Part shown: positions 1 through 31,735 of the stretch, piece by piece
Position numbering within the stretch: the first letter of the stretch is position 1
Layout of the letters: every line of letters starts with the position of its first letter
Assembly: GCA_035474135.1 (NCBI GenBank)
Contig: DATINP010000044.1
Span: 4,295 to 68,294 of the forward strand
Direction of reading: 5' to 3'
Length of the DNA stretch: 64,000 bases
From: Chloroflexia bacterium
Lineage (GTDB): Bacteria > Chloroflexota > Chloroflexia > QHBQ01 > JADMIH01
Translations under genes and position numbers: made by a program
Notes under the pieces: generated by a model
Databases searched by the model: none
Seen by the model: only the letters and a program-made list of their open reading frames with translations
Told to the model about the DNA's origin: nothing

Positions 1-87
1 CCTGAGAGGCACAGAGTCTCTAAGAACGGTAGGGGACAATAATTCGTAGCTGAAGACAAAGAAGTATCAGCATAAATTCTCGGACAT

Positions 88-103
88 TTTTGTCGTGACA
101 AAA
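88..103. repeat. TTTTGTCGYGACAAAA palindrome (copy 1, CGTG centre) in aroF leader
   Basis: Near-perfect 16-bp palindrome about 20 nt upstream of aroF ATG. Confidence 0.8.
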
Positions 104-122
104 AAGAAAGGACGTACAAACC

Positions 123-3375: not shown

Positions 3376-3393
3376 TTTTTGTCGCGACAAAAA
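3376..3393. repeat. TTTTTGTCGCGACAAAAA perfect palindrome (copy 2)
   Basis: 18-bp perfect palindrome between aroA and aroE. Confidence 0.85.
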
Positions 3394-3394: not shown

Positions 3395-3438
3395 GACGTA
3401 TGACGCATGACGCATGACGCATGACGCATGACGTATGA
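3395..3438. repeat. (GACGYAT)6 tandem heptamer array
   Basis: gacgtat gacgcat x4 gacgtat read directly. Confidence 0.9.
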
Positions 3439-3444: not shown

Positions 3445-4314
3445 ATGGCACCTGACGACCACCAAGACACATCAACTGTCACACATCACGTCGGCCTCAT
3501 CGGCTACCCCGTGGAGCACAGCCTGTCGCCCGCAATGCACAACGCAGCATTCACGCATTTGGGGTTGGAATACCGATATGTGCTATTGCCTACACCTCCT
3601 AGCGAGTTGGAGAGGCGCGTGAGAGAGTGCGTGGAGCGAGGGTTCGCGGGGTGGAACGTGACGGTACCCCACAAGGAGGGGATGGCACGAATGCTTGACG
3701 AGATGAGCGACGAGGTGAAGGCAACCGGCGCGTGCAACACTGTGCTGGTGGAGGGTGGCAAACTGCAGGGCTTCAATACTGACACAATAGGGTTTATACG
3801 AGGGCTAGAGGAAGCGGGCGGTATCTCGGCAGGCTCGAAGGCGGTCGTGCTGGGCGCAGGCGGGGCGGCGCGCGGCGTGGCGTGGGCATTGAGGCAAGCC
3901 GGGCACCGGGTGATTATTTTGTCGCGGAAGCCGGAGCAAGCGCGAGAGGTCGCCGAGGCTATAGGGGTAGAAGCCGGTCTGCTTGATGCGGAAACGCTAG
4001 AGGGCGAACTTGAAGTGGCGCAGCTACTCGTGAACTGCACGCCCGCGGGTATGTGGCCTCATGTGGAGGAGAGTCCTGTGCCGGACGGTGCGCGGATACC
4101 GGCAAACATGCTGGTGTACGACCTGGTGTACAGGCCAAGGCCGACATTGATGCTGCGGAAGGCGGCGGAGGCGGGCTGCCGTACGCAGAATGGGCTGGCG
4201 ATGCTGGTGTACCAGGGAGCAGCAGCGTTCGAAATATGGACGGGCCGTCCTGCCCCAATAGAGATGATGAGAAGGGCGTGCGTCAGGGGCGAGGGATTAG
4301 GGGTTAGGGGTTAG
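3445..4314 (+). CDS. aroE: shikimate dehydrogenase
   Basis: GLIGYPVEHSLSP, NVTVPHK, NTDTIGF, GAGGAARG motifs; C-terminal residues GLGVRG are encoded by the GGGGTTA heptamer repeat. Confidence 0.85.
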   Translation: MAPDDHQDTSTVTHHVGLIGYPVEHSLSPAMHNAAFTHLGLEYRYVLLPTPPSELERRVRECVERGFAGWNVTVPHKEGMARMLDEMSDEVKATGACNTVLVEGGKLQGFNTDTIGFIRGLEEAGGISAGSKAVVLGAGGAARGVAWALRQAGHRVIILSRKPEQAREVAEAIGVEAGLLDAETLEGELEVAQLLVNCTPAGMWPHVEESPVPDGARIPANMLVYDLVYRPRPTLMLRKAAEAGCRTQNGLAMLVYQGAAAFEIWTGRPAPIEMMRRACVRGEGLGVRG

Positions 4315-4368
4315 TAAGACGTCGTAAAACGCATAACTTCTAACACCTGACCCCTCACCCCTAACACC
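4287..4368. repeat. GGGGTTA-based composite inverted repeat
   Basis: ggggcgagggattaggggttaggggttag ... ctaacacctgacccctcacccctaacacc; left arm encodes the AroE C-terminus. Confidence 0.75.
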
Positions 4369-4389
4369 TACAGGAAGGATAACGCAACA

Positions 4390-5529
4390 ATGATACACAG
4401 GTTTCTTACGGGCGGAGAGTCACACGGGCCGGGGCTAACCACGATAGTGGAGGGGTTCCCGGCGGGGCTGGCATTGGACGTGGAGGCGATCAACCACGAG
4501 TTGACCCGTCGCCAAGGGGGCTATGGACGCAGCGGGCGCCAGCATATCGAGCGTGACGAGGTGCAGTTCTGGGGCGGAGTGGAGAATGGCGTCACCACAG
4601 GCGGGCCAATCGTCATGCAGATCGCCAACCGCGACTACGCCAACTTCATCAAGAAGGAGCACCCACGCCTCACCGCGCCACGGCCAGGCCACGCAGATCT
4701 CGTGGGGGCCATCAAGTATGGCTACAGCGACATGAGGACGGCGCTTGAACGCTCAAGCGCGCGGGAGACGGCGGCTCGAACAGCGACGGGCGCCCTCGCC
4801 AAGCAGTTGCTGGGGCAGTTCGGGGTGAAGGTGGGCAGTGTCGTCACAGAGATCGGGGGCGAACAGGCCGACGTGGACCTGTCGTCCCCGGAGTCGCTCC
4901 TGGAGGCCACAGAAGCCTCGCCCGTGCGGTGTCCTGATACGGAGGCCACGGAGCGAATGAAAGCGCGCATAGACTACGCCAGGCGCACCGGTGACACGTT
5001 GGGTGGGGTGTTCGTGGTGTGGGCGACAGGGCTTCCAATAGGGTTGGGAAGCTATGTGCACTGGGACCGCCGCCTCGACGGTCTGCTCGCGTGGGCGGTG
5101 ATGAGTATCCAGGCGATCAAGGGGGTGGAGATCGGCGAAGGCTTCGAGAACGCCCGCATGAACGGGCGGGACGTGCACGACCAGATTTATGTCGGCGAGC
5201 GGGGGTTGGAGAGGCACACGAACCGTGCGGGTGGGCTGGAAGGCGGCGTGACTAATGGGCAGCCGCTGATCGTGCGTGCCGCGATGAAGCCGATCTCTAC
5301 TACGATCAACCCGTTGCAGACGGTGGACGTGGCAACGGGCGAGGCGGCCAGCACGCAGTACCAGCGCTCGGACTTCTGCGCCGTGCCCGCAGCGGGCGTA
5401 GTGGGCGAGGCAATGGTGGCGTGGATACTGGCCGACGTGCTGCACGAGAAGCTGGGCGGCGACAGCCTGAGTGAGATGCGCGCACGGACGACGGACGACG
5501 GACGACCGACGACGGGCAGTGCCCGGTGA
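4390..5529 (+). CDS. aroC: chorismate synthase
   Basis: GESHGPGL, RRQGGYGRSGRQ, RPGHADL, SARETAART signatures; C-terminal TTDDGRPTTG is encoded by the left arm of a GGACGAC hairpin element. Confidence 0.9.
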   Translation: MIHRFLTGGESHGPGLTTIVEGFPAGLALDVEAINHELTRRQGGYGRSGRQHIERDEVQFWGGVENGVTTGGPIVMQIANRDYANFIKKEHPRLTAPRPGHADLVGAIKYGYSDMRTALERSSARETAARTATGALAKQLLGQFGVKVGSVVTEIGGEQADVDLSSPESLLEATEASPVRCPDTEATERMKARIDYARRTGDTLGGVFVVWATGLPIGLGSYVHWDRRLDGLLAWAVMSIQAIKGVEIGEGFENARMNGRDVHDQIYVGERGLERHTNRAGGLEGGVTNGQPLIVRAAMKPISTTINPLQTVDVATGEAASTQYQRSDFCAVPAAGVVGEAMVAWILADVLHEKLGGDSLSEMRARTTDDGRPTTGSAR

Positions 5530-5559
5530 CCAGCAGGCGTCGTCCGTCGTCCGTCGTCC
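5484..5559. repeat. (GGACGAC)n / (GTCGTCC)n hairpin element spanning the aroC-aroK junction
   Basis: Left arm acggacgacggacgacggacgaccgacgacgg, 22-nt loop, right arm cgtcgtccgtcgtccgtcgtcc. Confidence 0.85.
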
Positions 5560-6086
5560 GTCGTCCTACCAGGAATCTGGTGCTGGTAGGATTTATGGGC
5601 ACTGGCAAGACTACTGTGGGCGCGCTTGTGGCCGAGCGGCTGGGGTGGTCGTTCGTGGATACGGACGCACTGGTCAAGGTAGCGACGGGGATGTCCGTAG
5701 CCGAGATCTTCGCGACGCAAGGAGAGGTCGCGTTCCGAGCGCTGGAGAGAGAGGCGTGCCGGGAGGCAAGCGCACGCCAACACGTCGTTATAAGCGTGGG
5801 AGGCGGAGCCGTGATGGACCCGGAGAACAGGCGTGCGCTTGAAGCGAGCGGGATGCTTGTGCTGTTGACGTGCGAGCGCGACAGGCTGATCGAGCGATTG
5901 GAGGAGTCTGTGCGCCGAGGCGAGCGGCCCCTGCTTACCGGCGACATTGGGAAACGTATAGACACACTCGCCGCGAGCCGGGCGCAGGTGTATGGGTCAA
6001 TCGCGATGAAGGTGGACACTACGAGGCTGACGCCGGAAGAGGTTGTAGAGATTTTGGTCAGGGATTGTAACCCTTTACTCTCGTAA
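5526..6086 (+). CDS. aroK: shikimate kinase
   Basis: Walker A GFMGTGKTT and shikimate-kinase core; GTG start overlaps aroC stop; N-terminal [11 protein letters not shown] is encoded by the right arm of the hairpin element, so the true start is uncertain. Confidence 0.8.
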   Translation: MTSRRRPSSVVRRPTRNLVLVGFMGTGKTTVGALVAERLGWSFVDTDALVKVATGMSVAEIFATQGEVAFRALEREACREASARQHVVISVGGGAVMDPENRRALEASGMLVLLTCERDRLIERLEESVRRGERPLLTGDIGKRIDTLAASRAQVYGSIAMKVDTTRLTPEEVVEILVRDCNPLLS

Positions 6087-7715: not shown

Positions 7716-8552
7716 TCAGAACGAGGTACGCACAGCGCGAATGAGGTTTATTGGAGAGGCGTGGGGTGTCGCTATCAGGTGAGCAAGTGCGCCGGCGTGC
7801 TCATCAATGCGGCGCATCACATCCGCTTCATCGTCTTCGCACGTACAGCCGACCAGGTCGAGACAGTGAGCCCAGGCAGATTCGCGCGCTCTGTCCACCA
7901 TCAAGCAGGAGAACTCCTCATCCCACTGACCGAAAATCTCGTCGAGAAATCGGAGGGCGGGAGAATAGAGGCGCTCCACATGCTCCTGTAGTGTGTTGGC
8001 AGTACGCTTGAGCACCTCGTTTACGCCTGTATGGTCGTCGTAGCGCATGGGACGATCCGGATCAATCCCGGAGCGCATGAGAGCGATTGCCAGGTCGTGG
8101 TTGATATGAGCATTGACGCCGAGCAGGAGATGTTGTATTGCCAGCCCCTCACCATTCGCGCTTAACTCAAATGCAACCCGCCAGGCAGTCGGCACGTGCT
8201 CCAGGTCTCCCCGCTCGAAGGCTCGGAAAGCCTCCATATAGAGTTGTGCAAAATTCACAAGATAGCTTTGCACCCATGGGCCGTCCCTGAACTCACCTGC
8301 CTCTATAGCCTCGTCCATAGCCGACGTGATCGTCAGATAAGCCCCAACAAATATTGCCCGCCGGTCATTCGCGGCTCGGAGTTCCTCTTCAAGAGCAGTA
8401 AAACCGGCTCGTGCCGCAGCCGGTGTGGAGTAGTCGCCGTCCATGTGGAAGGTGATACGCACCGTGCCGTCGGCGCCTGAAAGCAGGGGCTGATCCATAT
8501 CACCCATAGTGCTACTGTCGTCCTCGATTGGGAACTCAACAGAGTGGTTCAT
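7716..8552 (-). CDS. hypothetical protein (possibly DUF5995-like)
   Basis: 278-aa ORF convergent with aroQ; conserved-looking LLGVNAHINHDL stretch; function unknown. Confidence 0.4.
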   Translation of the reverse strand: MNHSVEFPIEDDSSTMGDMDQPLLSGADGTVRITFHMDGDYSTPAAARAGFTALEEELRAANDRRAIFVGAYLTITSAMDEAIEAGEFRDGPWVQSYLVNFAQLYMEAFRAFERGDLEHVPTAWRVAFELSANGEGLAIQHLLLGVNAHINHDLAIALMRSGIDPDRPMRYDDHTGVNEVLKRTANTLQEHVERLYSPALRFLDEIFGQWDEEFSCLMVDRARESAWAHCLDLVGCTCEDDEADVMRRIDEHAGALAHLIATPHASPINLIRAVRTSF

Positions 8553-8810
8553 CTAGGCTTCCTGCAGGAATACCGGCTCGTAAGCTCACCCGGGTATTGT
8601 AATGTTCGCTAAGAGTAGGCTGAACGGTGTCACTGAGTCGGCGGTCTAGCAACACTGTCTAAAGCAGACGGAAATACTATGTGTAATGGACGGCTGCACA
8701 TTCGCACAGCCTTATAGGTGGGCAAATTATACTGCCTGACCAACGCGTAAGTCAATGGTAGATTTCAGGGTAAGCGTTTGCATACCGCTGAGGATAATTG
8801 GGCGTGATGC

Positions 8811-8832
8811 CTTTTTTGCCGCGACAGAAATC
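8811..8832. repeat. degenerate copy of the TTTGTCGCGACAAA palindrome
   Basis: cttttttgccgcgacagaaatc downstream of cydB. Confidence 0.5.
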
Positions 8833-8986
8833 CACCGTCAGTTCTGATCAAGCCCGACCTCTTTACGCAGTTCGTCTGCGGTTTTGGGTTCGACCACGCC
8901 GTGCTCCGAACCTCCAGAGCCGGACGCAATCGGGCGGTTGGTAATGGGCGGAACATAGGTTCCGAGCGTCCGCATCCATCTGCGTT

Positions 8987-10018
8987 TTAGGCTTTGCCGT
9001 TCAAGTCCGCGGCTTCGGGGTTGTGCCCTTTGAACACAGTAAAAAGCAGCCACAACGATGGTATCAGCAGCAAAGCGCCTACCGGAGCGGTCGCCAGTAG
9101 GAAGCCGAGCGTGGCGTCGGGCGCAGCCGAGGCATCGATAGTTAGATCCGGGTAGATGAGATAAGGCCATTGCGCCAGCGCCCATCCCCAGAGTAGCATC
9201 ACCACCTCGGCCACGGCTGTGACGCGCGCCACTGCGAAGCGCCTGTTCAGCACAGCCCACAGCGATAAGAGCGCAAATACAACGCCGAGAGCGAGCACGG
9301 GCAACGCCCTCAAGCTCAACAGGTTCTCGGCCAACCTCGGAGCCTGCCACACAAGCAGGGGAATCAACAGCACCGAAATGGCCACCACCACGCCGCCCGA
9401 CACCAGTGTGCGCCGCCGGAAGTCCTCGCGCAAGTCACCTTCCGTTTCTAACGTAAGGTAGACCGCGGCGAGATAGGCGAACAGAGCCAGTGCCAGGGCG
9501 CCGCAGGCCCACGACAGTGGGGTGAGCCAGGCTGTAAAGTAGTTCACTTGTACGGTACCGCCCGCCGCAACCTTGATTTCGCCTGCGGACACTGCGCCGA
9601 GGCACATGCCAAGCAAGACAGGCGTAATAACACTCGCGCTCCCGAATGCACGCGCCCACACACGCTGCGGGCCAACTTCCTCCGATCCGTGTGCCCTGAA
9701 CACAAACGCCGCCCCGCGCAGAATGATCCCCAGCAACAATAAGTGGAACGGGATAAAGAAAGCCTCGCTCAAGGCCGAAAAGGCAATAGGAAAGGCCGTG
9801 AACAGAATCACAAGTAGAAAGATCAGCCAGACGTGGTTCGATTCCCAGACAGGCCCCATCGCATCGGAAATGGCGCGTCTTTGAGCGTTAGCTCGTGGGC
9901 CTCTCGCGAAGAAATCCCACACACCGCCACCAAAATCGGCTCCGGCGAGCACCGTATAGGCGGTGAGGGCGAGCAACGCCAGCCCTGCCGCCAGGGTACT
10001 AAGCGACAGCGACACCAC
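8987..10018 (-). CDS. cydB: cytochrome bd ubiquinol oxidase subunit II
   Basis: Multi-TM protein with CydB N-terminus (ADFGGGVWDFF...) immediately downstream of cydA. Confidence 0.85.
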   Translation of the reverse strand: MVSLSLSTLAAGLALLALTAYTVLAGADFGGGVWDFFARGPRANAQRRAISDAMGPVWESNHVWLIFLLVILFTAFPIAFSALSEAFFIPFHLLLLGIILRGAAFVFRAHGSEEVGPQRVWARAFGSASVITPVLLGMCLGAVSAGEIKVAAGGTVQVNYFTAWLTPLSWACGALALALFAYLAAVYLTLETEGDLREDFRRRTLVSGGVVVAISVLLIPLLVWQAPRLAENLLSLRALPVLALGVVFALLSLWAVLNRRFAVARVTAVAEVVMLLWGWALAQWPYLIYPDLTIDASAAPDATLGFLLATAPVGALLLIPSLWLLFTVFKGHNPEAADLNGKA

Positions 10019-11351
10019 CTACCTCCTTCCCGCCGCTCGCGGATGTTTTCTGGTCCTCGTCGTCAACAGGACGGCCCGTAGCAAGCCTGAGCAAAAGCCA
10101 TACCAGTGTTACAGCCAGTACGATATACAGCCCGATGAACCCGGCGAAAGTATACCAGACGCCAGGTGCCGGCGTCACCGCATCTGCCGTACGCATCACG
10201 TTGTAAATGATCCAGGGTTGGCGGCCCACCTCGGTAACGATCCATCCCGCTTCCAGCGCCGCCACGCCCAGGACGCCGCTCAGCACCAGGGCACGAAGGA
10301 TCCATTTCCCGTGCTCTCGCTTCCGCCACCGCACGAACCAGTAAATCAGAGCGAACAAAAGTATGGCGAGTCCGCTACCAACCATTACCTGGAACGATAT
10401 ATGCACCAGCCCAACCACAGGCCAATCGGTTCTCGGCACCGCATCCAGACCCTGTATCTCGGCATTCGGGTCGTGGGTCGCCAGGAAACTCAGACCATAA
10501 GGTATTTCTAAGGAGAAAGGCACAGTCTCGTTGTTGATGTCAGGTATGCCCCCGATCCGGAGAGGTGCGCCCTTTTCAGTTTTGAACTGCGACTCCATCG
10601 CTGCGAGCTTGACGGGCTGCGTCTGCGCCACCAGCCTTGCCGCAGCATCGCCACTAATTGGCTGTGCGACAGCGGTTATCGTGCCCAGTATCATCGCGAG
10701 CGCCAGCCCCACCTTGTGATAGGTGTCGCGCCTGCCCTTCAGCAGACCCCAGGCATACACGCCGGCCACCATAAACGCGGTTGCCATATAAGAGGCAAGA
10801 GTAAGGTGCACCGCCAGCACGGCCCAGGAGGGATTAATTAGCGCCTTCACGGGGTCAATGTTGGTGGCCTGTCCGTTTACGAGGTCGAAGCCGGTGGGAT
10901 CCTGCATCCAGGAGTTGGCCGACATGACCAGCACCCCTGACATCGCTCCGCTCACCGCCACGGGTATGCCGCAAAGCCAGTGGGCCGTGGGCTTTAGGCG
11001 CTTCCAGCCGTAGAGGTAGAGCCCCAGGAATATGGCCTCTATGAAGAAAGCGTATCCCTCAAGGGCGAAGGCCGGACCAATCAAAGGACCTGCGAGTTTC
11101 ATGAATGGCGGCCAGAGCAGGCCCAGTTCGAACGACAGAGCGGTGCCGCTGACAGCACCAATAGCGAACAGGATGCCCGTAGCTTTGGCCCACTTGTGTG
11201 CCAGATCGAGATAAACCGCCTTCTTCGTGCGCAGCCCTAGCCCCTCAGCCACCAGCATCAAGAGCGGCATGCCAATACCAAGCGCCGCAAAGACCATGTG
11301 AAATCCCAGAGAAATCGCCATCTGTAGTCGCGCAGCTATCAGATTTTCCAT
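9999..11351 (-). CDS. cydA: cytochrome bd ubiquinol oxidase subunit I
   Basis: CydA N-terminus and Q-loop region (GFHMVFAALGIGMP, WAKATGILFAIGAVSG, EGYAFFIEAIFLGLYLYGW). Confidence 0.9.
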   Translation of the reverse strand: MENLIAARLQMAISLGFHMVFAALGIGMPLLMLVAEGLGLRTKKAVYLDLAHKWAKATGILFAIGAVSGTALSFELGLLWPPFMKLAGPLIGPAFALEGYAFFIEAIFLGLYLYGWKRLKPTAHWLCGIPVAVSGAMSGVLVMSANSWMQDPTGFDLVNGQATNIDPVKALINPSWAVLAVHLTLASYMATAFMVAGVYAWGLLKGRRDTYHKVGLALAMILGTITAVAQPISGDAAARLVAQTQPVKLAAMESQFKTEKGAPLRIGGIPDINNETVPFSLEIPYGLSFLATHDPNAEIQGLDAVPRTDWPVVGLVHISFQVMVGSGLAILLFALIYWFVRWRKREHGKWILRALVLSGVLGVAALEAGWIVTEVGRQPWIIYNVMRTADAVTPAPGVWYTFAGFIGLYIVLAVTLVWLLLRLATGRPVDDEDQKTSASGGKEVGGVAVA

Positions 11352-11491
11352 CCAGTCACCCGACCTTTTCGGTTATGTCCTCGCCTATTTCCCGTATGGC
11401 AGTAAAATCTGTTCCCCTTTAATAGTACTCCTTGACCCATGTAAAGTGTAGAGGAATGTGATTAATTTCACATATATATTTGCCCTGTGCG

Positions 11492-12577
11492 TTAATCTCC
11501 AAGATCCTTTTCCACGCCGAACATGACGTATAGCTTACGGGCGATCACGCAAATGGTTGCAAGGTCAAGGCGCTCTTCGAGGGAGAGGTTGGCGTCGGCG
11601 TCCACGCTGTCGGCGAAGCTTTGCATCATAGCGGAAATGCGAGCCAACTTGGAGCGCCGCGCCCGACGGTTGGCACGCGCCATCAGCATCAGGCGGTGCA
11701 TCTGGCCTGCGGGAGTATCCTCTTTAGCCAAACGCTCAAGGTCGCGCTTCAGCTTGCGGTCGATCTGTACCTCTACGCCGTCCACCAGCACCGTCTCCAT
11801 GGTTGAGGTCGAAGAAGTGTCGCCTTCATCCTCGCCGACGAAGTCGGATTCGCCGCGCTTCTCTTTTAGCTGGCGGATGTACGTGGGGAGGTCGTCGGTG
11901 GTGATCTCGCCCGCGAGAAGCTGGCGGATCATATCTGCACGGTCGTCTGCGTCCGCCACTTTAATCAGGTTGGCGACAGCACGCAGGCTGTCGGGCTTGG
12001 CCTCGATCAGGGCCTGTATATCAGCGGGCGCTCTGGCGGCGCGTACCCTGTTGTAAACGTAGCCAAGCTTCTTGCCCACCTCGCGTGCGATCTGCTCCAG
12101 TGTGAAGCCCATCTCGGCGCTCATCAGCAGATAAATACGGCCTTCTTCGAGAGGCGAGAGGTCTTCGCGCTGGATATTCTCGGTGATGGCGAGAGTGACC
12201 ATCTCCTCGTCTGTGAGTTCCTTGACGATGACGGGCAGGGTAGAAAGACCGATCATGCGTGAGGCCTCACGCCTGCGGTGGCCGGCGGTAAGCTGGTAGT
12301 GGCCCTTGAGCTCGGGGTGAGGACGAGCGGTAAGGACGCCCTGAAAGCCCTGGGCGCGTATTACGGAGGCTAGTTCTTCGAGAGCCACACCACCTGTGCT
12401 GCTGCGAGGCTGGTAGGGGTTGTCGTGCAGGCGGTCGAGGGGCAACATGGTTGTACGGCGCTCGCCGTGTTGGCCCGAAGAGTCGGGCGAGAGGCTGGAC
12501 GCGAACAGCCGCGACATATCTTTGCCCGGCTCATCCAGGTCCAGTTCAACAGGTTTGAGAGTTCGTTTGCCGCTCAT
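11492..12577 (-). CDS. parB: ParB/Spo0J-family partition protein
   Basis: ParB N-terminal domain with LTAGHRRREAS (box II GHRR) and LPVIV motif; start chosen at MSGKRTL (ORF track extends to 12691). Confidence 0.8.
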   Translation of the reverse strand: MSGKRTLKPVELDLDEPGKDMSRLFASSLSPDSSGQHGERRTTMLPLDRLHDNPYQPRSSTGGVALEELASVIRAQGFQGVLTARPHPELKGHYQLTAGHRRREASRMIGLSTLPVIVKELTDEEMVTLAITENIQREDLSPLEEGRIYLLMSAEMGFTLEQIAREVGKKLGYVYNRVRAARAPADIQALIEAKPDSLRAVANLIKVADADDRADMIRQLLAGEITTDDLPTYIRQLKEKRGESDFVGEDEGDTSSTSTMETVLVDGVEVQIDRKLKRDLERLAKEDTPAGQMHRLMLMARANRRARRSKLARISAMMQSFADSVDADANLSLEERLDLATICVIARKLYVMFGVEKDLGD

Positions 12578-12861
12578 GTGTGCTCCGATCCGTTGATAGG
12601 TGTGAGAATTCGTCCTATGGTTGCCGGTGCCAATGCCGATTTTGGAAATGCTTGTGGGTGATAGTATAGCCCCACGTTGTTGCGGAGGCAAATCGTGCGG
12701 GTGTATTTTACTTCATAGCAAAGTCGCGCTGATTTTGCTTGCCGGGGGACCGATCTTCATGTGGAAGCGGACACCAGGTCTAACAAAATGGGCTAAAATG
12801 AATTACGTGTCGCCGATGAGCGCCGGCACTTTAGGGACTGAGCCGGAAAGGGGTAGCCAGG

Positions 12862-13773
12862 ATGAACGAGAAAGATATTAGCCTGCCTGTTGATGGAGGA
12901 GCACAGCGCCCCTCGCCTTTTGAGCAAATACGCCGTGAAACGGACGACGGCAGCGAGTTTTGGTCTGCCCGGGAACTGGCGAAGATACTTGGGTACACCG
13001 AGTTCGGCAAGTTCCGCAATGCACTTCAGAAGGCAGAGGTAGCCTGCGAGAACAGCGGACAGGAGATAGAGGATCATTTCGCCCATGTGAGCGATATGAT
13101 CACCATAGGCAAAGGCGGCAAGCGCAAGGTCGAGGATGTGAGGATGTCGCGCTATGCCTGCTATCTGGTCGTGCAAAACGCCGACCCTTCCAAAGAGATA
13201 GTAGCCATCGGGCAGACCTATTTCGCCGTACAGACCCGCAGGCAAGAACGCTCGGACGAGCTGGCGAGCCTCACCGCCGAGCAACGCCGTTTGTACCTGC
13301 GCGGCGAACTATCGAGCCATAACCGCAGGCTGGCCGAGGCCGCGAACCAGGCGGGCGTAGTAGAGCCGGTAGATTTTGCGGTATTTACCGACCACGGCTA
13401 CCAGGGTCTTTACGGAGGGCTGAAGCACCGCGACATCCACAAGCGCAAGGGTCTGAAGAAGTCACAGCACATACTCGATTACATGGATGGAGAAGAACTG
13501 GGCGCGAATATATTTCGCGTAACCCAGACAGAGGCCAAGCTAAGGCGCGAAGGCGTGCAGGGTAAGCAACAGGCCAACAAGGCTCACTTCGACGTGGGTA
13601 GGGAAGTTCGCGACACGATCGAACGGTTGGGAGGCACGATGCCAGAAGAACTTCCGACGCCCCAAGAGAGCGTGCAACAATTGCGCCGGAAGGAAGAGAA
13701 ACGCCTTGCGCAAGGGCCTCAGCTTTCGCTTATTGAAGGCGATACGGATGGAGACGATGACAGCGGCGAGTAG
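12862..13773 (+). CDS. dinD: DNA-damage-inducible protein D (DinD-like)
   Basis: Strong collinearity with E. coli DinD as recalled (EFWSARELA, RYACYLVVQNADP, QTYFAVQTRRQE). Confidence 0.75.
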   Translation: MNEKDISLPVDGGAQRPSPFEQIRRETDDGSEFWSARELAKILGYTEFGKFRNALQKAEVACENSGQEIEDHFAHVSDMITIGKGGKRKVEDVRMSRYACYLVVQNADPSKEIVAIGQTYFAVQTRRQERSDELASLTAEQRRLYLRGELSSHNRRLAEAANQAGVVEPVDFAVFTDHGYQGLYGGLKHRDIHKRKGLKKSQHILDYMDGEELGANIFRVTQTEAKLRREGVQGKQQANKAHFDVGREVRDTIERLGGTMPEELPTPQESVQQLRRKEEKRLAQGPQLSLIEGDTDGDDDSGE

Positions 13774-13814
13774 GCCTGGCGCTTAGCACAACATACGATA
13801 GAAAGAGATATAAC

Positions 13815-14273
13815 TTGGCTAACAAGAACGAAGAGATCATCGACAGCCCAACAGGGTGGGTCGCAAAGCATATTCGCACCTACGTCGAGAGCGGGGGCAC
13901 GGAAGGACAAAAGTACGCCGGCAGAGATTTACTGCTGCTGACTACGAGGGGTCGTAAGAGCGGCAAGCTTCGCCGTACCGCGCTCTACTATGGTGTTGAT
14001 AACGGACGCTACATACTCATAGCTTCAAATGGCGGCAGTCCGAAGCATCCGCTATGGTACCTGAACTTGCAAGAAGAGCCGAAAGTGGAGGTGCAGGTCG
14101 GCCCCGAAGTTTTCAGCGCGGTCGCACGTCCCGCAACGGAGAAGGAGAAGCCGCGCTTATGGGAGATGATGGTCAGTATATTCCCTAACTATGCAGCATA
14201 TCAAAAGAAAGCAACCAGAGATATCCCGGTGGTTGTCGTAGAGCGGAGTAACAAGCCGGGTTCGACTGAATAA
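13815..14273 (+). CDS. deazaflavin (F420)-dependent nitroreductase-family oxidoreductase (Ddn/DUF385-like)
   Basis: TTRGRKSGKLRRTAL and HPLWYLNL motifs typical of the Ddn family. Confidence 0.75.
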   Translation: MANKNEEIIDSPTGWVAKHIRTYVESGGTEGQKYAGRDLLLLTTRGRKSGKLRRTALYYGVDNGRYILIASNGGSPKHPLWYLNLQEEPKVEVQVGPEVFSAVARPATEKEKPRLWEMMVSIFPNYAAYQKKATRDIPVVVVERSNKPGSTE

Positions 14274-14346
14274 CCGGTGATCCCCTGTTTGGACACGAGG
14301 GATGGTTAAGAATCATTTCCCCCACGCCGGGGAAATGATCGTCTTG

Positions 14347-15015
14347 CTAGCTTTCTTCCGGCTCCATGAAGTTGCGAGCTACTCCGCAGGTGGTCGTCCA
14401 TACGATGGCGGCGAACCAACCCGCAAGCACATCTGTGGGATAATGCACCTCCAGGTACACACGACTTGCTCCTATGAGCGCGCAGAATGGCAGCACGGGC
14501 ACCCATACCAGCCGTGCGATCGGGTGCCCTGTCAGGTTACCCCGGCGGCTGACAATGTAGGCCAGGGTGCCGTAGGTAGCAAGCGTGGTCATCGCGTGAC
14601 CGCTGGGAAAGCTATAGCCTGTGGCGTGGGCACGGCGGAGCTTTAGAGCAGGACGCGCCCTGTGAAACCTGCGTTTCAGAAGTTCATTGAGAATTCCGCC
14701 CCCGATCAAACCGGACGCCCAGGTTACCAGGTCAGCCTTGCGGTCATGTGCCAGCAACGCCAGACCGACAAGCACTCCGGATGTGCCCAGAAACCAGGGC
14801 TCACCGAGAGCAGTAGCTGCCGACATGATCCTGTCGAGGGCAGGGCTGCGCATCTCGCGAGCCTCTTCAACCAGGCGTGTGTCGATGGCCATGGATTCGT
14901 TCTCAAGAATCTCGTCGGCAAGCTTACCGAACAGGAAGACGCTGCCCAGACTGACGCCAATGCCAGCGACCAGTACTGCCGGCACGGGCAGAACCTGCCC
15001 CCGCTTTCTACCCAT
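14347..15015 (-). CDS. PAP2-family phosphatase
   Basis: YSFPSGHAM and SRVYLEVHYPTDVLAG acid-phosphatase motifs; N-terminal TM helix. Confidence 0.85.
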   Translation of the reverse strand: MGRKRGQVLPVPAVLVAGIGVSLGSVFLFGKLADEILENESMAIDTRLVEEAREMRSPALDRIMSAATALGEPWFLGTSGVLVGLALLAHDRKADLVTWASGLIGGGILNELLKRRFHRARPALKLRRAHATGYSFPSGHAMTTLATYGTLAYIVSRRGNLTGHPIARLVWVPVLPFCALIGASRVYLEVHYPTDVLAGWFAAIVWTTTCGVARNFMEPEES

Positions 15016-15250
15016 AAATCCGCACCTCCCTGTTCACAATTGCGTTTTGCCCGCTGCGCTGACAAGGAAATGCTTACTCGCAAAATGCGTGCCAGGATCC
15101 GGCAGGGTAGGATAAATGTAGACACAGATCACGCCTCTATGATGGCATCGGACTCTGTGGAAGCGTATTATCGGAGGCGGACACGATGCATCCGCCAGGA
15201 CATAGCTGGACCGGTCTTGCGCCCGTCAGGTGACATACAGGAGTCCGTAG

Positions 15251-16336
15251 CTAATCGTCGCCGGTTGCTTCGGAGATTGGCACATTACTCCCAGCGTGAG
15301 GTGTGTTTGGTACAAGTTTTGAAATGCGGTCGAGGGCAGGCCCGCCTATTACGCGTAGAAGTTCTGCCAGCAGATTGCGGTAGGCCTGGGTGTGCTCGCT
15401 ACGGGGGTGGAGGGTGACCATCACCTGCCGCAGCATGGAGGCTTCGCCATATTTGGTGCTGCGCTTAATAGTGGTCTTGAAGGCGCGTATATTGCGCTTT
15501 TGGAGGGCTTGCCGCAGGCTCTCTTCCATTGCCCGGGCCACGTTGGTGCTGGACTGCACCATCATCGCCACCGCGCCAGCCACCTGCAAGCGCGGGTTGA
15601 AGTCTTTGCGCGTTTCGTCTACGCGCTTCAAGAGCAGTTGCAGACCCTTGAGGGAGAGCATCTCGAGTTCCGTAGGGATCACCAGGTAATCGGCAGCGTA
15701 CAGGGCGTTGATGGTGAGGGAGCTAAGGTTGGGGCCGGGATCGAGCAGGATGTAGTCGTAGCGACCGCGTATCCCGCGCATGGCGTTGGACAACCGGCTC
15801 CCCCAGTTGGGTTTGCCGCGCAGGTAGTCCTCGGCTTCACTGCTGACAATGTTGTTGGGCACGAGGTCGGGGCCGAAGGCGGTGTGCAGGATGACATCCT
15901 CTAGCTCACAATCGCCGATCATAGCGTCATAGACCGTGGCCTGGAGGCCCTCAGGGTTGTGACCCAGCGACCATGTGAGATGGCCCTGCGGGTCGAGGTC
16001 GACCGCCAGCACTCGCACCCCCAGCCCTGAGAGCAACACCGCAAGGTTGGCGGTGGCGGTGGTTTTGCCCACCCCTCCCTTCTGGTTGACGAGCGCGATC
16101 ACCACAGCGCCGTGGTTGCGGTCGAGCGACATGCCCGCGAGAAAGGCGTCCACATCGGCCTCGTAGACTCGGTAATGGCCGCCGGAGGTGGAGTTGGCAG
16201 GCAGGAGGCCTTCGCGGATGTACTGGGCCACAGTGCCTGTATGCACACCCAGGCGCTCGGCTACCTCGGAGGTTCGGAGCAGGCGGCTATGTTCCCTGGC
16301 GTCGCGGTTGTCGCGCGTATCGCGTGCGTCTCTCAT
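15251..16336 (-). CDS. parA: ParA/Soj-family ATPase with N-terminal MerR/excisionase-type HTH
   Basis: Deviant Walker A NQKGGVGKTT plus N-terminal HTH (LLRTSEVAERLGVHTGTVAQYIREG); N-terminus carries an (RDx) tripeptide repeat. Confidence 0.8.
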   Translation of the reverse strand: MRDARDTRDNRDAREHSRLLRTSEVAERLGVHTGTVAQYIREGLLPANSTSGGHYRVYEADVDAFLAGMSLDRNHGAVVIALVNQKGGVGKTTATANLAVLLSGLGVRVLAVDLDPQGHLTWSLGHNPEGLQATVYDAMIGDCELEDVILHTAFGPDLVPNNIVSSEAEDYLRGKPNWGSRLSNAMRGIRGRYDYILLDPGPNLSSLTINALYAADYLVIPTELEMLSLKGLQLLLKRVDETRKDFNPRLQVAGAVAMMVQSSTNVARAMEESLRQALQKRNIRAFKTTIKRSTKYGEASMLRQVMVTLHPRSEHTQAYRNLLAELLRVIGGPALDRISKLVPNTPHAGSNVPISEATGDD

Positions 16337-16631
16337 CGTCGTCCTTTCAGTTGGAGAGCAGCCCAGATGTCCCCTTGTAGTACAGTGGTGGAAGACCCTT
16401 CTCCTGCACCATTCATACTCTACGTGCGTTACGACCGATTATTGCGTTTCGTGCGTTAGATGGGTAATATATCATGAAATCGTGTAAGTGCGAAGTTTAT
16501 CCACAATCGAAACCAGGATGACTTCCTGGTGAAACGTAACACAAACAGCGATTGATACGTATGATCTGGTAGACTGGATGGTGTAGTCCGGTATCACAGC
16601 CTGGGAGTTTACAGGCAAAGGCGATAAAGCA

Positions 16632-17048
16632 ATGTTAATAGCGTTACATCCACCTGCGTTCTTGTGGTTTTTCAGCGGGTTCCGTGGGAACTGGACCTTC
16701 ATTATAGGGTTCATCGTTATCATGCTGGTGTTGCGGGTTGCATTACGCAGCTTCTTCCCTAGAGGGGGCATGAGGCGCGGCGGGGGGCCTCGTTATAACA
16801 AGTACAACCAACCGCAACCACCGAAACCTGATCAAGGCCAAATCACCGACAAACCCTACTACGGAGCGCCGGGAACCAATAGCGAAGGACAGGGTACGGG
16901 AGCAGAAACTGTGCGCACCGGCGGGGTCGACACGCGCCGCGTGGATAACTGGAGCAGTGAAACGCCCTCGGCCTACGGCGAGCCTACCCGCCCGCTGGAG
17001 AGCAAATCTGAGATGCCGAGAGAAGATACCGACCAGACCTCTTCTTAA
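16632..17048 (+). CDS. hypothetical small membrane protein with disordered C-terminus
   Basis: 138-aa ORF with two predicted TM helices then a G/P/Q-rich tail; sits in an AT-richer intergenic block. Confidence 0.35.
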   Translation: MLIALHPPAFLWFFSGFRGNWTFIIGFIVIMLVLRVALRSFFPRGGMRRGGGPRYNKYNQPQPPKPDQGQITDKPYYGAPGTNSEGQGTGAETVRTGGVDTRRVDNWSSETPSAYGEPTRPLESKSEMPREDTDQTSS

Positions 17049-17058: not shown

Positions 17059-18762
17059 CTATGTGATCTTCGGTACTGAGCGGCGCAGACACGCGAAGAA
17101 GTAGGCCATTTTATTCGTCAGGCCTATCGCGCCGTGCTTGCCCTGTCCTTCGCGCGTGGTACGCTTCGCAGTGTACATGAGGTCCACGAACGCCTCGGCT
17201 TGCAGCCCCGACGTGCGCCATAACCGCATTGCTTGGCCTACATTTTCCAGCACGTGATCAGCATCTCCCAGTTCGTATGAGAAGTCTGCAACTACCCTCG
17301 AGATAAAGGGCGAATAGGCCGGGTCGCGAGCTTCTCCGGGTTCGTTCCCAGAAGCCTTTTTGACCAAGTTATGACTCGAGTCAGCCTTCATAATTTGTTC
17401 TGGATGATCTGCTTCTATTTCGTGTTCACCGCGCGTCACCGGGGGCTGTGCACTGCCTGTCATGGGACGCGGTGTCTTCCGCTTTACAGGGGCTAGCAAC
17501 TGCGCGTCACCTGGGCGTGCATACTGTACGTCGTTGGGGCCTGTCAACTGTGCGTCACTACCCACCTTATACTGTACGTCACTGGTGGCAATAAACTGGG
17601 TGTCACCGGGAAGAGGATACTGTATGTCACCAGGGGGTGTATACTGCGCGTCACCGGGATGCGCATACCCGCCGTCACGACCCATTGTATGTATCTGTGC
17701 GCCTGCACGGTCGCGTCGAGCCTGTGCCGCGAGGCTGCCGCGACGGGCTTTCTTGACTGGAAGGGTCGTGCTTGCTTCCTGCAAAGCTCCTGCTGTAGCG
17801 TCGGCTTCTGTGTCGTCTCCGGTTGGGGTTTGTCCGTTCTTCCCCGGTTTGAGCAGGTTGCGGATCTCGTCCAAGAGGGGGCTGAAGTCGTAGGCGTTCG
17901 AGTCTTGCCCGCCGTCGCTCTTGGTGCGGCGTACCAGCCGAAGCGAGCCGCGCTCGACCAGTCCCGTCTTGATGCGGTGCAGATAGGCGGCTGTGTAACC
18001 CGTCTGCAAGGCCATACGCACTATGCTGGGATAGGGCAGGGATGTGTCCCACTGGTATGAGAAAATGTAGGCCACGAACCACACCTGCTGTGGGGTCATG
18101 TCCAGTTCTTTACTGTATGTAAACAGGGCGCGTGGCACCGCTGCCACTCCGTAGCGGGTCAGTACCCTGCCGTAGCGGGCCACAAAGCTTGGGTCGTGCT
18201 GGGCGCGCTCGATCTCTTCGATGCCGCGCTCGTACCCGTTCTCATGCCCGTTGCGTTGGGGGAAATCTGGGACGCGTGTGGGGTCGTAAATCGAGCTTAT
18301 GGGATTGCTGTTGATCCTGCTTTTGACGTGCTCGGTAATGCACGATTCGAGCCTCTCGAACAGGGCGGCGAAGTCGTAGTAGTTCGACTCTTGCCCGCGC
18401 TCCTGCGACCTCCTGGGCAGGACCAGCAGGTAGCCCATGCCCTGTAGCTCGTCGCTGTATCGTTGTAACTGCCTCTTGCTCATGCCCGATGCGCGGGACA
18501 TCACGCCCAGGCTGGGGTAGGGGAGGTCTTCGTCCCATTTATGTGACAGGATGTAGGAGATGAACCATACATGCTGGGCGTAGAGGTCGAGCTTACCACC
18601 GAAGTGGTACAGCGCCGACGGCAGGGCCGCGATCCCGTGTTGCAGGATCACTCTGCCGAAACGCGCCGCGAAGCTATTGCCTGTCCCGGCAAAGGTGCCC
18701 GGGTTGACCTCTATATCGCCGTTTTGTCCTACCCTGCCCCTCTGTTCTATATTTTTGGGCAT
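17059..18762 (-). CDS. putative replication-initiator-like DNA-binding protein with tandem winged-helix domains and an octapeptide repeat
   Basis: Two roughly 110-aa paralogous domains (ARFGRVILQHGIAALP... and ARYGRVLTRYGVAAVP..., each ending SN.YDF); 8 x (xGDxQYxx) repeat; GGAGG RBS 8 nt upstream of ATG at 18762. Confidence 0.45.
   Translation of the reverse strand: MPKNIEQRGRVGQNGDIEVNPGTFAGTGNSFAARFGRVILQHGIAALPSALYHFGGKLDLYAQHVWFISYILSHKWDEDLPYPSLGVMSRASGMSKRQLQRYSDELQGMGYLLVLPRRSQERGQESNYYDFAALFERLESCITEHVKSRINSNPISSIYDPTRVPDFPQRNGHENGYERGIEEIERAQHDPSFVARYGRVLTRYGVAAVPRALFTYSKELDMTPQQVWFVAYIFSYQWDTSLPYPSIVRMALQTGYTAAYLHRIKTGLVERGSLRLVRRTKSDGGQDSNAYDFSPLLDEIRNLLKPGKNGQTPTGDDTEADATAGALQEASTTLPVKKARRGSLAAQARRDRAGAQIHTMGRDGGYAHPGDAQYTPPGDIQYPLPGDTQFIATSDVQYKVGSDAQLTGPNDVQYARPGDAQLLAPVKRKTPRPMTGSAQPPVTRGEHEIEADHPEQIMKADSSHNLVKKASGNEPGEARDPAYSPFISRVVADFSYELGDADHVLENVGQAMRLWRTSGLQAEAFVDLMYTAKRTTREGQGKHGAIGLTNKMAYFFACLRRSVPKIT
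17487..17680. repeat. 8 x 24-bp tandem repeat inside the Rep-like gene (iteron-like; encodes xGDxQYxx)
   Basis: Each unit ends ACTG(Y)(R)(Y)GTCAC with exact 24-bp period (GTCAC ends at 17510, 17534, ... 17678). Confidence 0.8.
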
Positions 18763-18781
18763 AGAAAACCTCCTGTACCCC

Positions 18782-18810
18782 TTGACAGGAGGATGGCCCG
18801 GTGCTACAAT
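18782..18810 (+). promoter_or_regulatory. consensus sigma70-type promoter (TTGACA-17-TACAAT)
   Basis: TTGACA 18782-18787, 17-nt spacer, TACAAT 18805-18810; points away from the Rep-like gene. Confidence 0.55.
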
Positions 18811-18816
18811 GCTTTT

Positions 18817-18909
18817 GAGCATACATTGTGCCGGTGATCCTCCTCCCAAGAGGGCCACACCGACGGAATCTTCAAAGCCTGACTGTTACCAGCAGTCGGG
18901 TTTTTATTT
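18817..18909 (+). ncRNA. putative small RNA of about 90 nt (promoter plus terminator defined), divergent from the Rep-like gene
   Basis: Consensus promoter at 18782-18810 and an 8-bp-stem hairpin followed by TTTTTATTT at 18878-18909; no ORF in between. Confidence 0.4.
18878..18909 (+). terminator. rho-independent terminator
   Basis: CCTGACTG/CAGTCGGG stem (one G-U pair), 7-nt loop, then TTTTTATTT. Confidence 0.6.
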
Positions 18910-19428: not shown

Positions 19429-19674
19429 CTAGCCCTCTGTACCCGTGCGCTGTTGCGCCGGCACCTGGATGGTGTCGCGGCCTCTTTGCAACTGCTCAAG
19501 CTGTTCGAGGCGCTCGACGATATCGTCGTAGCTGTCGGCGTCCAACACCACGAACCTCTGCCTCCCCTTGACCACCAGCACAGGCCGCCCATTGGACGCC
19601 TGTTCCAGCTGTGGGCCGGGATTCATCCTGAAGCTCTTGTAGTCCACCACATCTCTCAACTGTATCTTCGCCAT
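19429..19674 (-). CDS. Phd/YefM-family type II antitoxin (orphan)
   Basis: MAKIQLRDVVDYKSF...VVLDADSYDDIVERLEQLEQLQ matches the Phd/YefM fold; GGAGG RBS; no toxin ORF detected downstream. Confidence 0.6.
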   Translation of the reverse strand: MAKIQLRDVVDYKSFRMNPGPQLEQASNGRPVLVVKGRQRFVVLDADSYDDIVERLEQLEQLQRGRDTIQVPAQQRTGTEG

Positions 19675-20045
19675 GAGCGACCTCCGTTCGTCTGAGCTTT
19701 CCAGTATCTGGCTTGAGATGCTATGCTGTATCTGCAATATTACTACTTAACGTATGCGCGAAGCACATATCTACGTAGAAATCTCCAACTTTCTTACGCA
19801 CAGAATCTCCAACCTACCGGATGATAGCGGATGTTGCGCCGGATAGCAATAGGTTTTTACACATCCTTTGGTTTCTCGGCCCGTCTCTTGCTTACATTCT
19901 AGTATGCCAGGGATCCTTGTCGCGAGAAAAAAATGGACATAGGACTCGGGGACGGAACACGGATCACGAAGATAACCAGGAAGCCTATGAGAGCGAGTAA
20001 GAGAACTCCAAGATATTCAAGGATCAAGCGTTTGAACTACGACTT

Positions 20046-23295: not shown

Positions 23296-23350
23296 GAGTT
23301 CTGAGTTCTGAGTTCTAGGGTAAACTTCTTTGTCGCTACAGAAATCGCGT
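23296..23350. repeat. (GAGTTCT)3 array plus degenerate TTTGTCGCTACAGAAA palindrome
   Basis: gagttctgagttctgagttct aggg taaacttctttgtcgctacagaaatcgcg. Confidence 0.75.
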
Positions 23351-25401: not shown

Positions 25402-25495
25402 GGAGTTCTGAGTTTTGAGTTCTGAGGGATTAGGGGTTAGTGATTCGTTATGCGTGGTCGGTCGTCGGTCGTCGGTCGTCCTCCTAACCCCTACG
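25402..25495. repeat. composite heptamer element: (GAGTTCT)3 + (GGGGTTA)2 + (GGTCGTC)3-4 + CCTAACCCCTAC
   Basis: Read directly between the cupin and Mo-subunit genes. Confidence 0.8.
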
Positions 25496-27744: not shown

Positions 27745-27840
27745 AATTCTGAGTGCTGAGTGACCAGTGCGTCATACGTTGTCAGTCGTCGGTCGTCCCG
27801 ACTTACGATCTAAGATCTATGATCTAAGATCTTAGACTCC
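27745..27840. repeat. composite element: GAGTGCT/GAGTGAC, GTCGTCG units and (GATCTAA)-type palindromic array
   Basis: ctgagtgctgagtgaccagtgcgtcatacgttgtcagtcgtcggtcgtcccgacttacgatctaagatctatgatctaagatcttagac. Confidence 0.75.
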
Positions 27841-28994: not shown

Positions 28995-29032
28995 ACTGCC
29001 CCCTTTTGACCGGCGGTCATGCGTGATAGGTC

Positions 29033-29100
29033 AAGCGCTGTCGCGACAATAAAGTGATTGTCAGCCGACCAGTTGGTCACGTATCACCTGTGACCCATTG
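29033..29100. repeat. GCTGTCGCGACAATAAAG palindrome copy plus GGTCAC-N9-GTGACC inverted repeat in divergent promoter region
   Basis: tgtcgcgaca core at 29036-29045; ggtcacgtatcacctgtgacc at about 29076-29096. Confidence 0.6.
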
Positions 29101-31698: not shown

Positions 31699-31735
31699 GC
31701 GCTATGCGTCATGCGTCGTCTTAGTAACCCCTCGC
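31684..31735. repeat. (ATGCGTC)n array (reverse orientation of the GACGCAT family) plus TAACCCC unit
   Basis: gacatgatgcgtcatgcgctatgcgtcatgcgtcgtcttagtaacccctcgcc. Confidence 0.75.

Follow-up and report, generated by a model that had tools for sequence, protein, structure and literature searches.

Chromosomal ParB (Spo0J) proteins are paired with parS (consensus TGTTTCAC-GTGAAACA; Caulobacter, B. subtilis and T. thermophilus; structures 6T1F, 1VZ0 and 4UMK), a perfect 16-bp palindrome without a spacer that occurs in several copies around parAB. Noc, a ParB paralogue with switched specificity, has the NBS (TATTTCCC-GGGAAATA), also a 16-bp palindrome, which differs from parS at bases 1 and 6. 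The replicon-specific ParB proteins of V. cholerae (ParB2/parS2) and Burkholderia cenocepacia have 14–16-bp palindromes of their own, present in several copies around par/rep genes, and such secondary-chromosome and large-plasmid systems combine a longer-type ParA with a plasmid-like initiator next door. KorB of the IncP plasmid RK2 (PDB 8QA8) is a ParB-family CTPase that serves both partition and gene silencing; its site OB is a 13-bp palindrome found in intergenic or promoter-proximal positions across the replicon. Here we analyse a recurrent 16-bp palindrome, TTTTGTCGCGACAAAA, in a 64,000-nucleotide stretch of DNA from a Chloroflexia bacterium (assembly GCA_035474135.1, contig DATINP010000044.1, positions 4,295 to 68,294; hereafter the window). 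It is most probably a non-canonical parS-type site read by the ParB encoded in the window, which would act with ParA in the partition of a replicon with a DnaD-like Rep protein.

The window system shares with ParB(Spo0J)–parS the spacer-less palindrome and its repetition around parAB, a ParB_N domain with a helix-turn-helix (HTH), the GxxRxxA arginine patch and the ENxQRxDL box, and, in sister classes of the site, TGTT...AACA arms. However, its motif agrees with canonical parS at 6 of 16 positions and has C at base 6; its ParB has Leu rather than Arg at position 173 (Caulobacter numbering throughout) and a longer, unrelated C-terminal half; its ParA carries an N-terminal HTH; and the locus is linked to a DnaD-like Rep protein, not to dnaA/oriC genes. 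As with Noc and its NBS, the site has a base other than G at position 1 and C at base 6, and the protein has Arg or Lys at 179 and 184; residue 173, however, is Leu, Ile or Val instead of Gln, and base 1 is T instead of A. The score against the NCBIfam Noc model (123 bits, cut-off 315) indicates that the window protein is not Noc, which is not known to have a ParA partner, whereas the window ParB has one. The V. cholerae and Burkholderia systems differ in sequence and in phylum from this one (Chloroflexota), of which one homologue lies inside a 7.28-Mb contig. KorB is only remotely homologous (E = 3e-10; Spo0J reaches 1e-28), and no KorA-like partner was identified.

A palindrome recurs in the intergenic spacers of the window

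An earlier note on this DNA had listed seven copies of the palindrome, and this recurrence is real: at up to three mismatches TTTTGTCGCGACAAAA matches the window six times, against 0.18 matches expected, and six matches were reached in 0 of 100 shuffles. The seventh listed copy (29033–29054) is weaker; its 10-bp core TGTCGCGACA is intact and the 12-mer TTGTCGCGACAA is matched there with one mismatch. The 12-mer gives 11 matches at up to two mismatches against 2.08 expected, and the four additional ones (31275, 46874, 48069 and 49483; two mismatches) lie within open reading frames (ORFs), their number being at the level of chance (~2). An eighth, exact copy was found at 407–422 of L001, a metagenome contig of the same organism (99.97% identical), 0.7 kb upstream of the window start. 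The central TG in place of CG seen at 88–103 is a variant found also among the sites of a related locus, L224.

All seven window copies lie outside the listed ORFs. With 11.6% of the window being intergenic, this would occur by chance with P ~3e-7. A second gene caller placed 19923 in no spacer; the spacer table therefore holds six copies.

A loop-less 16-bp palindrome with A/T-rich arms suits a dimeric HTH protein, and we agree with the earlier note in comparing it to an operator rather than a terminator. The features of an intrinsic terminator are not found: the architecture is reversed, with a T-tract before and an A-tract after the stem, and a loop is absent. This reversed architecture, together with the null results of Rfam and tRNA searches of the window (0 matches, 0 tRNAs), led us to reject an RNA element, a tRNA or a terminator. 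Operators of sigma-54 or LacI/GntR type were set aside as well, the spacing or the centre being unfit as judged by eye.

ParB, ParA and Rep-like proteins are encoded among the copies

The window ParB scores 123 bits against TIGR00180 (cut-off 58 bits) and is 100% identical to protein P0121, ‘ParB/RepB/Spo0J family partition protein [Chloroflexia bacterium]’. Its sequence contains the arginine patch GHRRREA, the box ENIQREDL (ENIQREDLSPLEE) and the recognition helix GKKLGYVYNRVR, and its CTPase motifs are intact. Its homologues in PDB are Spo0J, ParB and Noc, with KorB (8qa8) as a remote one. The ParA is 83–87% identical to the ParA proteins that adjoin class-A ParBs in two loci of other Chloroflexota, L216 and L221. 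Orthologs of the 599-aa Rep-like protein (41–58% identity) are encoded beside parAB in L216, L217, L220 and L221; in L216, L220 and L221 these neighbours exceed the Pfam cut-offs for DnaD_N and/or HTH_36, which identifies them as Rep-like winged-helix proteins. We conclude that the window carries a replication/partition module: it encodes ParB, ParA and a Rep-like protein, and parAB is grouped with Rep in relatives.

This module is rearranged, with three unrelated genes between parA and parB and cydAB after parB. An 8.1-kb block (8757–16851) is absent at the syntenic place in the metagenome-assembled genome (MAG) JBBRDO01 (contig L096), where the Rep-like region abuts the promoter of a DUF5995 gene. 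The block holds cydBA, parB, genes for a DinD/Bro-N protein, an F420H2-dependent quinone reductase-like protein and PAP2, and parA; the degenerate site at 8814 lies at its left edge. A small ORF (19429–19737, minus strand), flanked by the Rep-like gene and the 19915 site, gives a sub-threshold match to the Phd/YefM antitoxins (22 bits, cut-off 29.8), and a Phd/YefM gene adjoins parB in L216. By sequence, these ORFs would fit a plasmid-like maintenance region.

A Rep-like gene in the neighbourhood raises the question of whether the palindrome is rather an iteron-like binding site of the DnaD_N/HTH_36 protein that marks a replication origin. The gene is always found nearby, and the 19915 site lies in a 1.2-kb, mostly non-coding stretch upstream of it. 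Iterons, however, are normally clustered direct repeats and not single palindromes scattered over 60 kb; L219 has palindromes but no recognisable Rep-like gene within ±10 kb; and the site covaries with ParB residues, as described below. We consider an iteron highly improbable.

Palindromes and recognition helices change together in related loci

Eight loci of other Chloroflexota encode homologues of the window ParB, and parA adjoins parB in all eight (Table 1). In two of them, L216 and L221, the ParB is 57% and 51% identical to that of the window and the identical 16-mer stands beside parAB. The remaining loci have different palindromes together with different recognition helices. In total, about six recognition-helix classes face six palindrome classes, and a search for sites of another class at up to two mismatches found none in any ParB-homologue locus. 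The classical places of partition sites are directly downstream of parB and upstream of parA. Copies 0–32 bp after the parB stop codon are seen in L216, L219, L221, L222 and L224, and copies 135–290 bp upstream of parA in L219, L221 and L222.

Three palindrome classes, labelled B, C and E, keep the canonical parS arms TGTT...AACA. In L219, on the 7.28-Mb contig, a near-canonical parS, TGTTTCGTGTGAAACA, occupies 8467–8482, 164 bp away from the palindrome of class C that precedes parA. These arms and the near-canonical site link the ParB family to ordinary parS, and, judging by these sequences, the L219 ParB may read both types of site. The site pair of L224 can also be written TGTTTTCG/ACGAAAACA.

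Table 1. Palindrome copies and partition genes of the window, and palindromes at ParB-homologue loci of other Chloroflexota (ParB identity is to the window ParB)
Feature	Position	Strand	Sequence	Description
Window, 1 mismatch (central CG to TG)	88–103		TTTTGTCGTGACAAAA	chorismate mutase–DAHP synthase spacer, 19 nt before the ATG at 123
Window, exact	3377–3392		TTTTGTCGCGACAAAA	perfect palindrome reaches 18 bp (3376–3393); EPSP synthase–shikimate dehydrogenase spacer
Window, degenerate, 2 mismatches	8814–8829		TTTTGCCGCGACAGAA	downstream of cydB; ~66 bp upstream of the -35 of the DUF5995 promoter
Window, degenerate, 3 mismatches	19915–19930		CCTTGTCGCGAGAAAA	~1 kb upstream of the Rep-like gene
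Window, degenerate, 3 mismatches	23328–23343		CTTTGTCGCTACAGAA	co-directional spacer, 46 nt upstream of the ATG at 23281 (-)
Window, weak, 4 mismatches	29036–29051		CGCTGTCGCGACAATA	arms degenerate; divergent spacer 28995–29368
Window, exact	58816–58831		TTTTGTCGCGACAAAA	inside the perfect 22-bp palindrome CTCTTTTGTCGCGACAAAAGAG (58813–58834); 45 nt 5′ of the trehalose-6-P synthase ATG (58770, -)
Window ParB	11492–12577	-		361 aa from the ATG at 12577; ParB_N + HTH_ParB (PF02195 + PF17762)
Window ParA-type Walker ATPase	15251–16336	-		AAA_31/CbiA, KGGVGKT; N-terminal HTH_17/excisionase-like (MerR-like) domain
Window Rep-like protein	17059–18858	-		599 aa; two winged-helix repeats (DnaD_N/HTH_36); start codon uncertain
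L216 (1.15-Mb contig)	4874; 11169 (32 bp after parB stop)		TTTTGTCGCGACAAAA, exact	ParB 57% identical; helix GKKLGYVYNR
L221	8808 (135 bp upstream of parA); 11154 (2 bp after parB stop)		TTTTGTCGCGACAAAA, exact	ParB 51% identical; helix GKTIGYIYNR
L217, L220	2.8–7.3 kb from parAB		TGTTGTCATGACAACA	ParB 47–49% identical; helix G[KR]KRGY[VI]ENR
L219	187 bp upstream of parA; 32 bp after parB		TGTTTTCGCGAAAACA	ParB 50% identical; helix GKNRGYVENR
L224	four copies, first 4 bp after parB		TGTTTTCGTGAAAACA / TGTTTTCACGAAAACA	R173, V177
L222	286 bp upstream of parA; across parB stop		GTGATTCGCGAATCAC	helix GKTVSYVRNR
L223	single copy, 69 bp after parB		GTATGTGTACACATAC	helix GKKLGYVQNR; parA fragmented

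In HMMER the recognition helix aligned without gaps to that of Caulobacter ParB (evGKKLGYVYNRVRaaRaP against tiGKSRSHVANTMRLLALP in PDB 6T1F). The chain numbering of this entry (R163, T169, A174, G191) differs by a constant offset of 10 from the published R173, T179, A184 and G201. The residue equivalent to R173 is Arg in the four loci with G at base 1 (T-G at bases 0–1; L217, L219, L220 and L224) and Leu, Ile or Val in the five with T at base 1 (window, L216, L221, L222 and L223). The rule thus holds in nine of nine loci, the window ParB having Leu173. In Caulobacter ParB, R173 hydrogen-bonds guanine 1 of parS; all parS-specific variants retain it, it is described as ‘absolutely conserved’ among ParB orthologs, and sites of NBS type, with C at base 6, are tolerated with Lys or Arg at 179 and 184 (Jalal et al., PMC7383237). 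In our set, residues 179 and 184 are Arg or Lys in all loci and base 6 is C in all classes except the single-copy L223. Position 162 is Gln in ParB and Noc; class A has Leu there, and classes B and C have His. The residue at 177 (Tyr, Glu, Arg, Val or Gln) likewise depends on the class. The equivalent of position 201 is ambiguous: an ungapped alignment gives the invariant Arg of ‘SLRAV’, and the gapped HMMER alignment does not.

The N-terminal HTH_17/MerR-like domain of ParA could in principle read the palindrome itself, which would then be an operator for autoregulation of the type Ia style and not a ParB site. One palindrome lies 135–290 bp upstream of parA in L219, L221 and L222, as such an operator might. 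Autoregulation, though, needs neither the copies directly after parB nor those that lie, in the window, up to 47 kb away; moreover, the site classes follow the ParB recognition helix as the ParB–parS crystal structure predicts, and the arms resemble canonical parS. A ParA operator is accordingly very unlikely.

The palindrome as a probable variant parS site

Several lines of evidence lead us to regard the palindrome as a variant parS: the motif statistics and the presence of ParB, ParA and a Rep-like protein; the identical 16-mer beside parAB in two genomes in which ParB is 51–57% identical; and the different palindromes that accompany different recognition helices, in agreement with the R173–guanine 1 contact. 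Viewed as a ParABS system, the locus has a ParB near the sites, a ParA partner, an inverted repeat of ~16 bp near parAB and a site that changes with the recognition helix; the canonical parS consensus TGTTNCACGTGAAACA has 0 matches at up to three mismatches in the window, which points to a variant centromere site. The likeliest binder of the palindrome is therefore the ParB at 11492–12577 rather than a transcription factor of the aro genes. Most likely, the palindrome represents a lineage-specific version of a known partition system rather than a selfish repeat or a regulatory site of aromatic amino-acid synthesis.

By analogy with the ParB proteins that have been studied, a ParB dimer would recognise the 16-bp inverted repeat via its HTH, bind CTP, close to a clamp and slide onto flanking DNA. 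Eight or more sites over ~60 kb around rep–parA–parB would jointly build a large partition complex, on which the ParA ATPase would act to segregate the replicon; the complex might also load SMC. Binding by ParB, CTP-dependent spreading and the partition function are inferred, and the replicon served may be a chromosome, a chromid or a megaplasmid.

A number of observations weigh against this reading. No window copy stands directly beside parA or parB, the nearest being 2.7 kb (8814) and 3.6 kb (19915) away, and the locus is rearranged, with parA and parB split. Four of the eight copies are degenerate (2–4 mismatches), and ParB binding there may be weak or absent. Canonical parS sites are often intragenic, whereas all copies here are intergenic. 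Copies are missing at three of four orthologous positions in relatives, some share their flanks (window 79–117 with L094, 39 bp; L002 2772 with 7426), and among the relatives one copy of L002 lies in a convergent spacer and one of L094 apparently in frame in a CoxL-like ORF. The apparent rarity of the palindrome genome-wide rests on the matches listed in a scan of GTDB, and the covariation is drawn from nine loci in about six classes.

If the palindrome is a variant parS, an unexplained repeat becomes a testable annotation: centromere sites together with the ParB, ParA and Rep-like initiator that would serve a replicon of a poorly sampled Chloroflexia lineage. The about six cognate ParB/palindrome classes, including those with Leu, Ile or Val at position 173, would be natural specificity variants of ParB that complement the engineered paths from ParB to Noc, and they could supply orthogonal ParB/parS pairs for DNA labelling. 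For specialists, the interest lies in the natural replacement of Arg173 together with cognate ParB/site classes.

Genes and promoters next to the copies

The copies at 88 and 3377 led the earlier note to suggest coordinated regulation of the aro genes. Three of the eight copies, those at L001 407, window 88 and window 3377, do belong to the aro cluster, as the operator of a dedicated transcription factor co-regulating aromatic amino-acid genes would be. The other five flank unrelated genes, however, and taken together the neighbours (DAHP synthase, shikimate dehydrogenase, DUF5995, an FAD oxidoreductase, hypothetical proteins and trehalose-6-P synthase) have no common function. In L118, whose DAHP synthase is 89% identical, the orthologous chorismate mutase–DAHP synthase spacer has no palindrome, so that the conservation upstream of aro genes for which the earlier note had proposed to look is not found there. 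In addition, the aro operon appears to have a Tyr/Trp-rich leader peptide and terminator of its own, and the copies of relatives flank sugar-metabolism genes and parAB. Given the empty L118 spacer and the association with parAB, we reject an aro operator, to which we attach next to no probability. More generally, promoter-proximal palindromes near biosynthetic operons are not necessarily metabolic operators.

The leader region of the aro operon, at 480–790 of L001 (0.4–0.7 kb upstream of window position 1), has the appearance of a classical leader-peptide attenuator. It comprises a promoter (TTGATA-17-TAGAAT), a 54-codon, Tyr/Trp-rich leader ORF (L001 542–706; …NGYGYSYYWRYYS…) and a terminator-like hairpin with a T-tract directly before chorismate mutase.

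Copies are often located about 19–60 nt upstream of start codons, and two of them ~65–75 bp upstream of the -35 element of strong sigma-70-like promoters (TTGACT-18-TATAAT at window 8755; TTGATA-17-TAGAAT in L001). A scan for -35/-10 elements revealed no consistent spacing between palindrome and promoter, and no recognisable promoter at the other copies. The clear promoters of the region are of the ordinary TTGACA-N17/18-TATAAT types. Given the lack of a fixed spacing, a promoter element was rejected.

These positions bear on a further role that would extend partition and is compatible with it: as in KorB, ParB bound at promoter- or 5′-proximal palindromes might silence or tune the neighbouring genes (the aro operon, DUF5995, trehalose-P synthase and others). 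The intergenic location of all copies (P ~3e-7), their frequent position shortly before a start codon, the two copies upstream of strong promoters and the occurrence of KorB among the PDB homologues of the window ParB are consistent with such a role. Against it speak the inconsistent distance to recognisable promoters, the location of several copies between cistrons inside operons and of one relative's copy in a convergent spacer, and the functional incoherence of the neighbouring genes; besides, a 16-mer with A/T arms in a genome of 60% G+C may be tolerated only between genes. On balance we regard a KorB-like role as unlikely, if worth keeping in mind.

A broader proposal, which we put forward as speculative and rather doubtful, would combine these elements. 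The ParB family of Chloroflexota might form a natural series of at least five to six ParB/parS specificity classes, in which the window class swapped the guanine-reading Arg173 for Leu or Ile and reads thymine at base 1. Its sites might have multiplied into promoter-proximal spacers of housekeeping operons, and ParB could then be a KorB-like global silencer that couples partition to expression on a large, DnaD-Rep-driven replicon (chromid).

The DUF5995 gene (region 8560–8760, minus strand; L096 7588–7999) has a near-consensus promoter, TTGACT-18-TATAAT, with its -35 at 8755. The leader of ~170 nt is ~72% conserved in the relative L096 and includes the hairpin aaggctgtgcgaatgtgcagcc, with no Rfam match; judging from the sequence it may be a structured 5′ untranslated region.

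Copies in relatives and in databases

In MAG JBBRDO01, the syntenic contig L096 (~79% nucleotide identity) has a perfect copy at 4056–4071, orthologous to the 19915 site. L096 has no copy upstream of the conserved DUF5995 promoter. In L198, whose trehalose-P synthase is 76% identical, the spacer is 19 nt long and free of the palindrome, against 117 nt with the 22-mer in the window.

The exact 16-mer was searched for in 185,579 species genomes of GTDB, which gave at least 116 stretches against ~140 expected by chance. Almost all of the matches listed are single and come from unrelated taxa, the exceptions in Chloroflexia being MAG JBBRDO01 and one further MAG. Among these matches JBBRDO01 has three exact copies and one near-exact copy within 8 kb of contig 51, and a further copy on the contig that matches the surroundings of the window's Rep-like gene by synteny, thus four exact copies on two contigs. 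To judge from the matches listed, the distribution fits local clusters and not hundreds of copies per genome. A metagenome scan with DAHP synthase retrieved one close relative only (L118), and the other 79 loci (710 kb) contained no copy; a scan for homologues of trehalose-P synthase likewise gave few close relatives.

The earlier note had also considered that the palindrome belongs to a system of repeat elements and had described it as often located beside arrays of heptamers. Such arrays do adjoin the copies at 3377 and 23328 and, loosely, that at 58816; this is no excess over what two features confined to spacers would give (hypergeometric P = 0.38), and a link between palindrome and arrays was rejected. 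Inverted heptamer-like arrays flank 3 of 14 copies only. The motif recurs instead beside parAB and changes with the ParB helix, which argues against membership in a repeat-element system.

More broadly, a dispersed selfish or neutral palindrome resembling repetitive extragenic palindromes or miniature inverted-repeat transposable elements, and possibly tied to the heptamer arrays, might duplicate into intergenic DNA. The polymorphism of presence and absence among relatives, the one enlarged spacer (117 against 19 nt), the flanks shared by some copies, the three copies with inverted heptamer-like arrays and the one in a convergent spacer could all be understood in this way. Yet such an element would leave unexplained why the exact 16-mer stands beside parAB where ParB is only 51–57% identical, why other palindromes are found at or near parAB of other ParB subfamilies, and why residue 173 and base 1 covary. 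Nor is there any hint of hundreds of copies per genome among the GTDB matches listed, heptamer arrays do not adjoin the copies significantly more than chance would give (P = 0.38), the window has no transposase or RAYT, and conservation is limited to 16–22 bp. We assign this explanation very little probability.

Sharing of flanks is limited to few pairs. L094 (Chloroflexia MAG CAWCNY01) has an exact copy in a non-orthologous place, within a 39-bp stretch (7910–7948) that, flanks included, is 87% shared with window 79–117; the copy lies apparently in frame inside a CoxL/xanthine-dehydrogenase-like ORF that is of low complexity just past the copy. Another case is L002, where the copies at 2772 and 7426 share flanks. 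In L002, heptamer arrays flank two palindromes in inverted orientation.

Across the window, ~19 tandem arrays are built from 7-nt units of many different sequences; most of the arrays lie within or border intergenic spacers (for example 3395–3438, 4340–4370, 5484–5566, 23296–23316, 25403–25480, 27807–27836, 31690–31717, 51930–52040 and 61444–61470).

Viral genomes scanned for the 16-mer gave an insect-virus-like 174-kb contig and scattered phages, all unrelated to the window system, and a viral scan with the ParB alignment found remote ParB-like proteins only, at most 38% identical. In the 174-kb contig, IMGVR_UViG_641201376_000001 (L208, L210 and L214; 174,059 bp, 35–42% G+C), the 16-mer is the core of a ~170-bp tandem repeat with at least 12 copies in three clusters, and the contig resembles an insect double-stranded DNA virus with homologous-region repeats. 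Literature searches with the palindromes as strings did not find them as bacterial sites; they returned only a human DREF/ZBED1 site, which the core TGTCGCGACA matches (PMC7471704), and unrelated primers. The 16-mer in the viral contig and the DREF/ZBED1 match are probably unrelated coincidences.

Near the other GTDB matches, a weak ParB_N-like gene was seen only in L074 (Peribacteria), 2.3 kb away, and the matches from Saccharibacteria represent one orthologous coding site. A 28-bp palindrome, GGTTCCTTTTGTCGCGACAAAAGGAACC, with a conserved flank of ~40 nt was found on four contigs of the Peribacteria MAG CAZLUF01 (L024, L035, L074 and L100) and in a second MAG (L114); the ParB_N-like gene lies 2.3 kb from one of its copies, and it may be a separate family of repeats or partition sites. 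Finally, the window encodes at 43716–45068 (minus strand) a bacterial protein with WGR and PARP catalytic domains (PF05406, PF00644), adjoining an ECF-type sigma factor (42354–42902).

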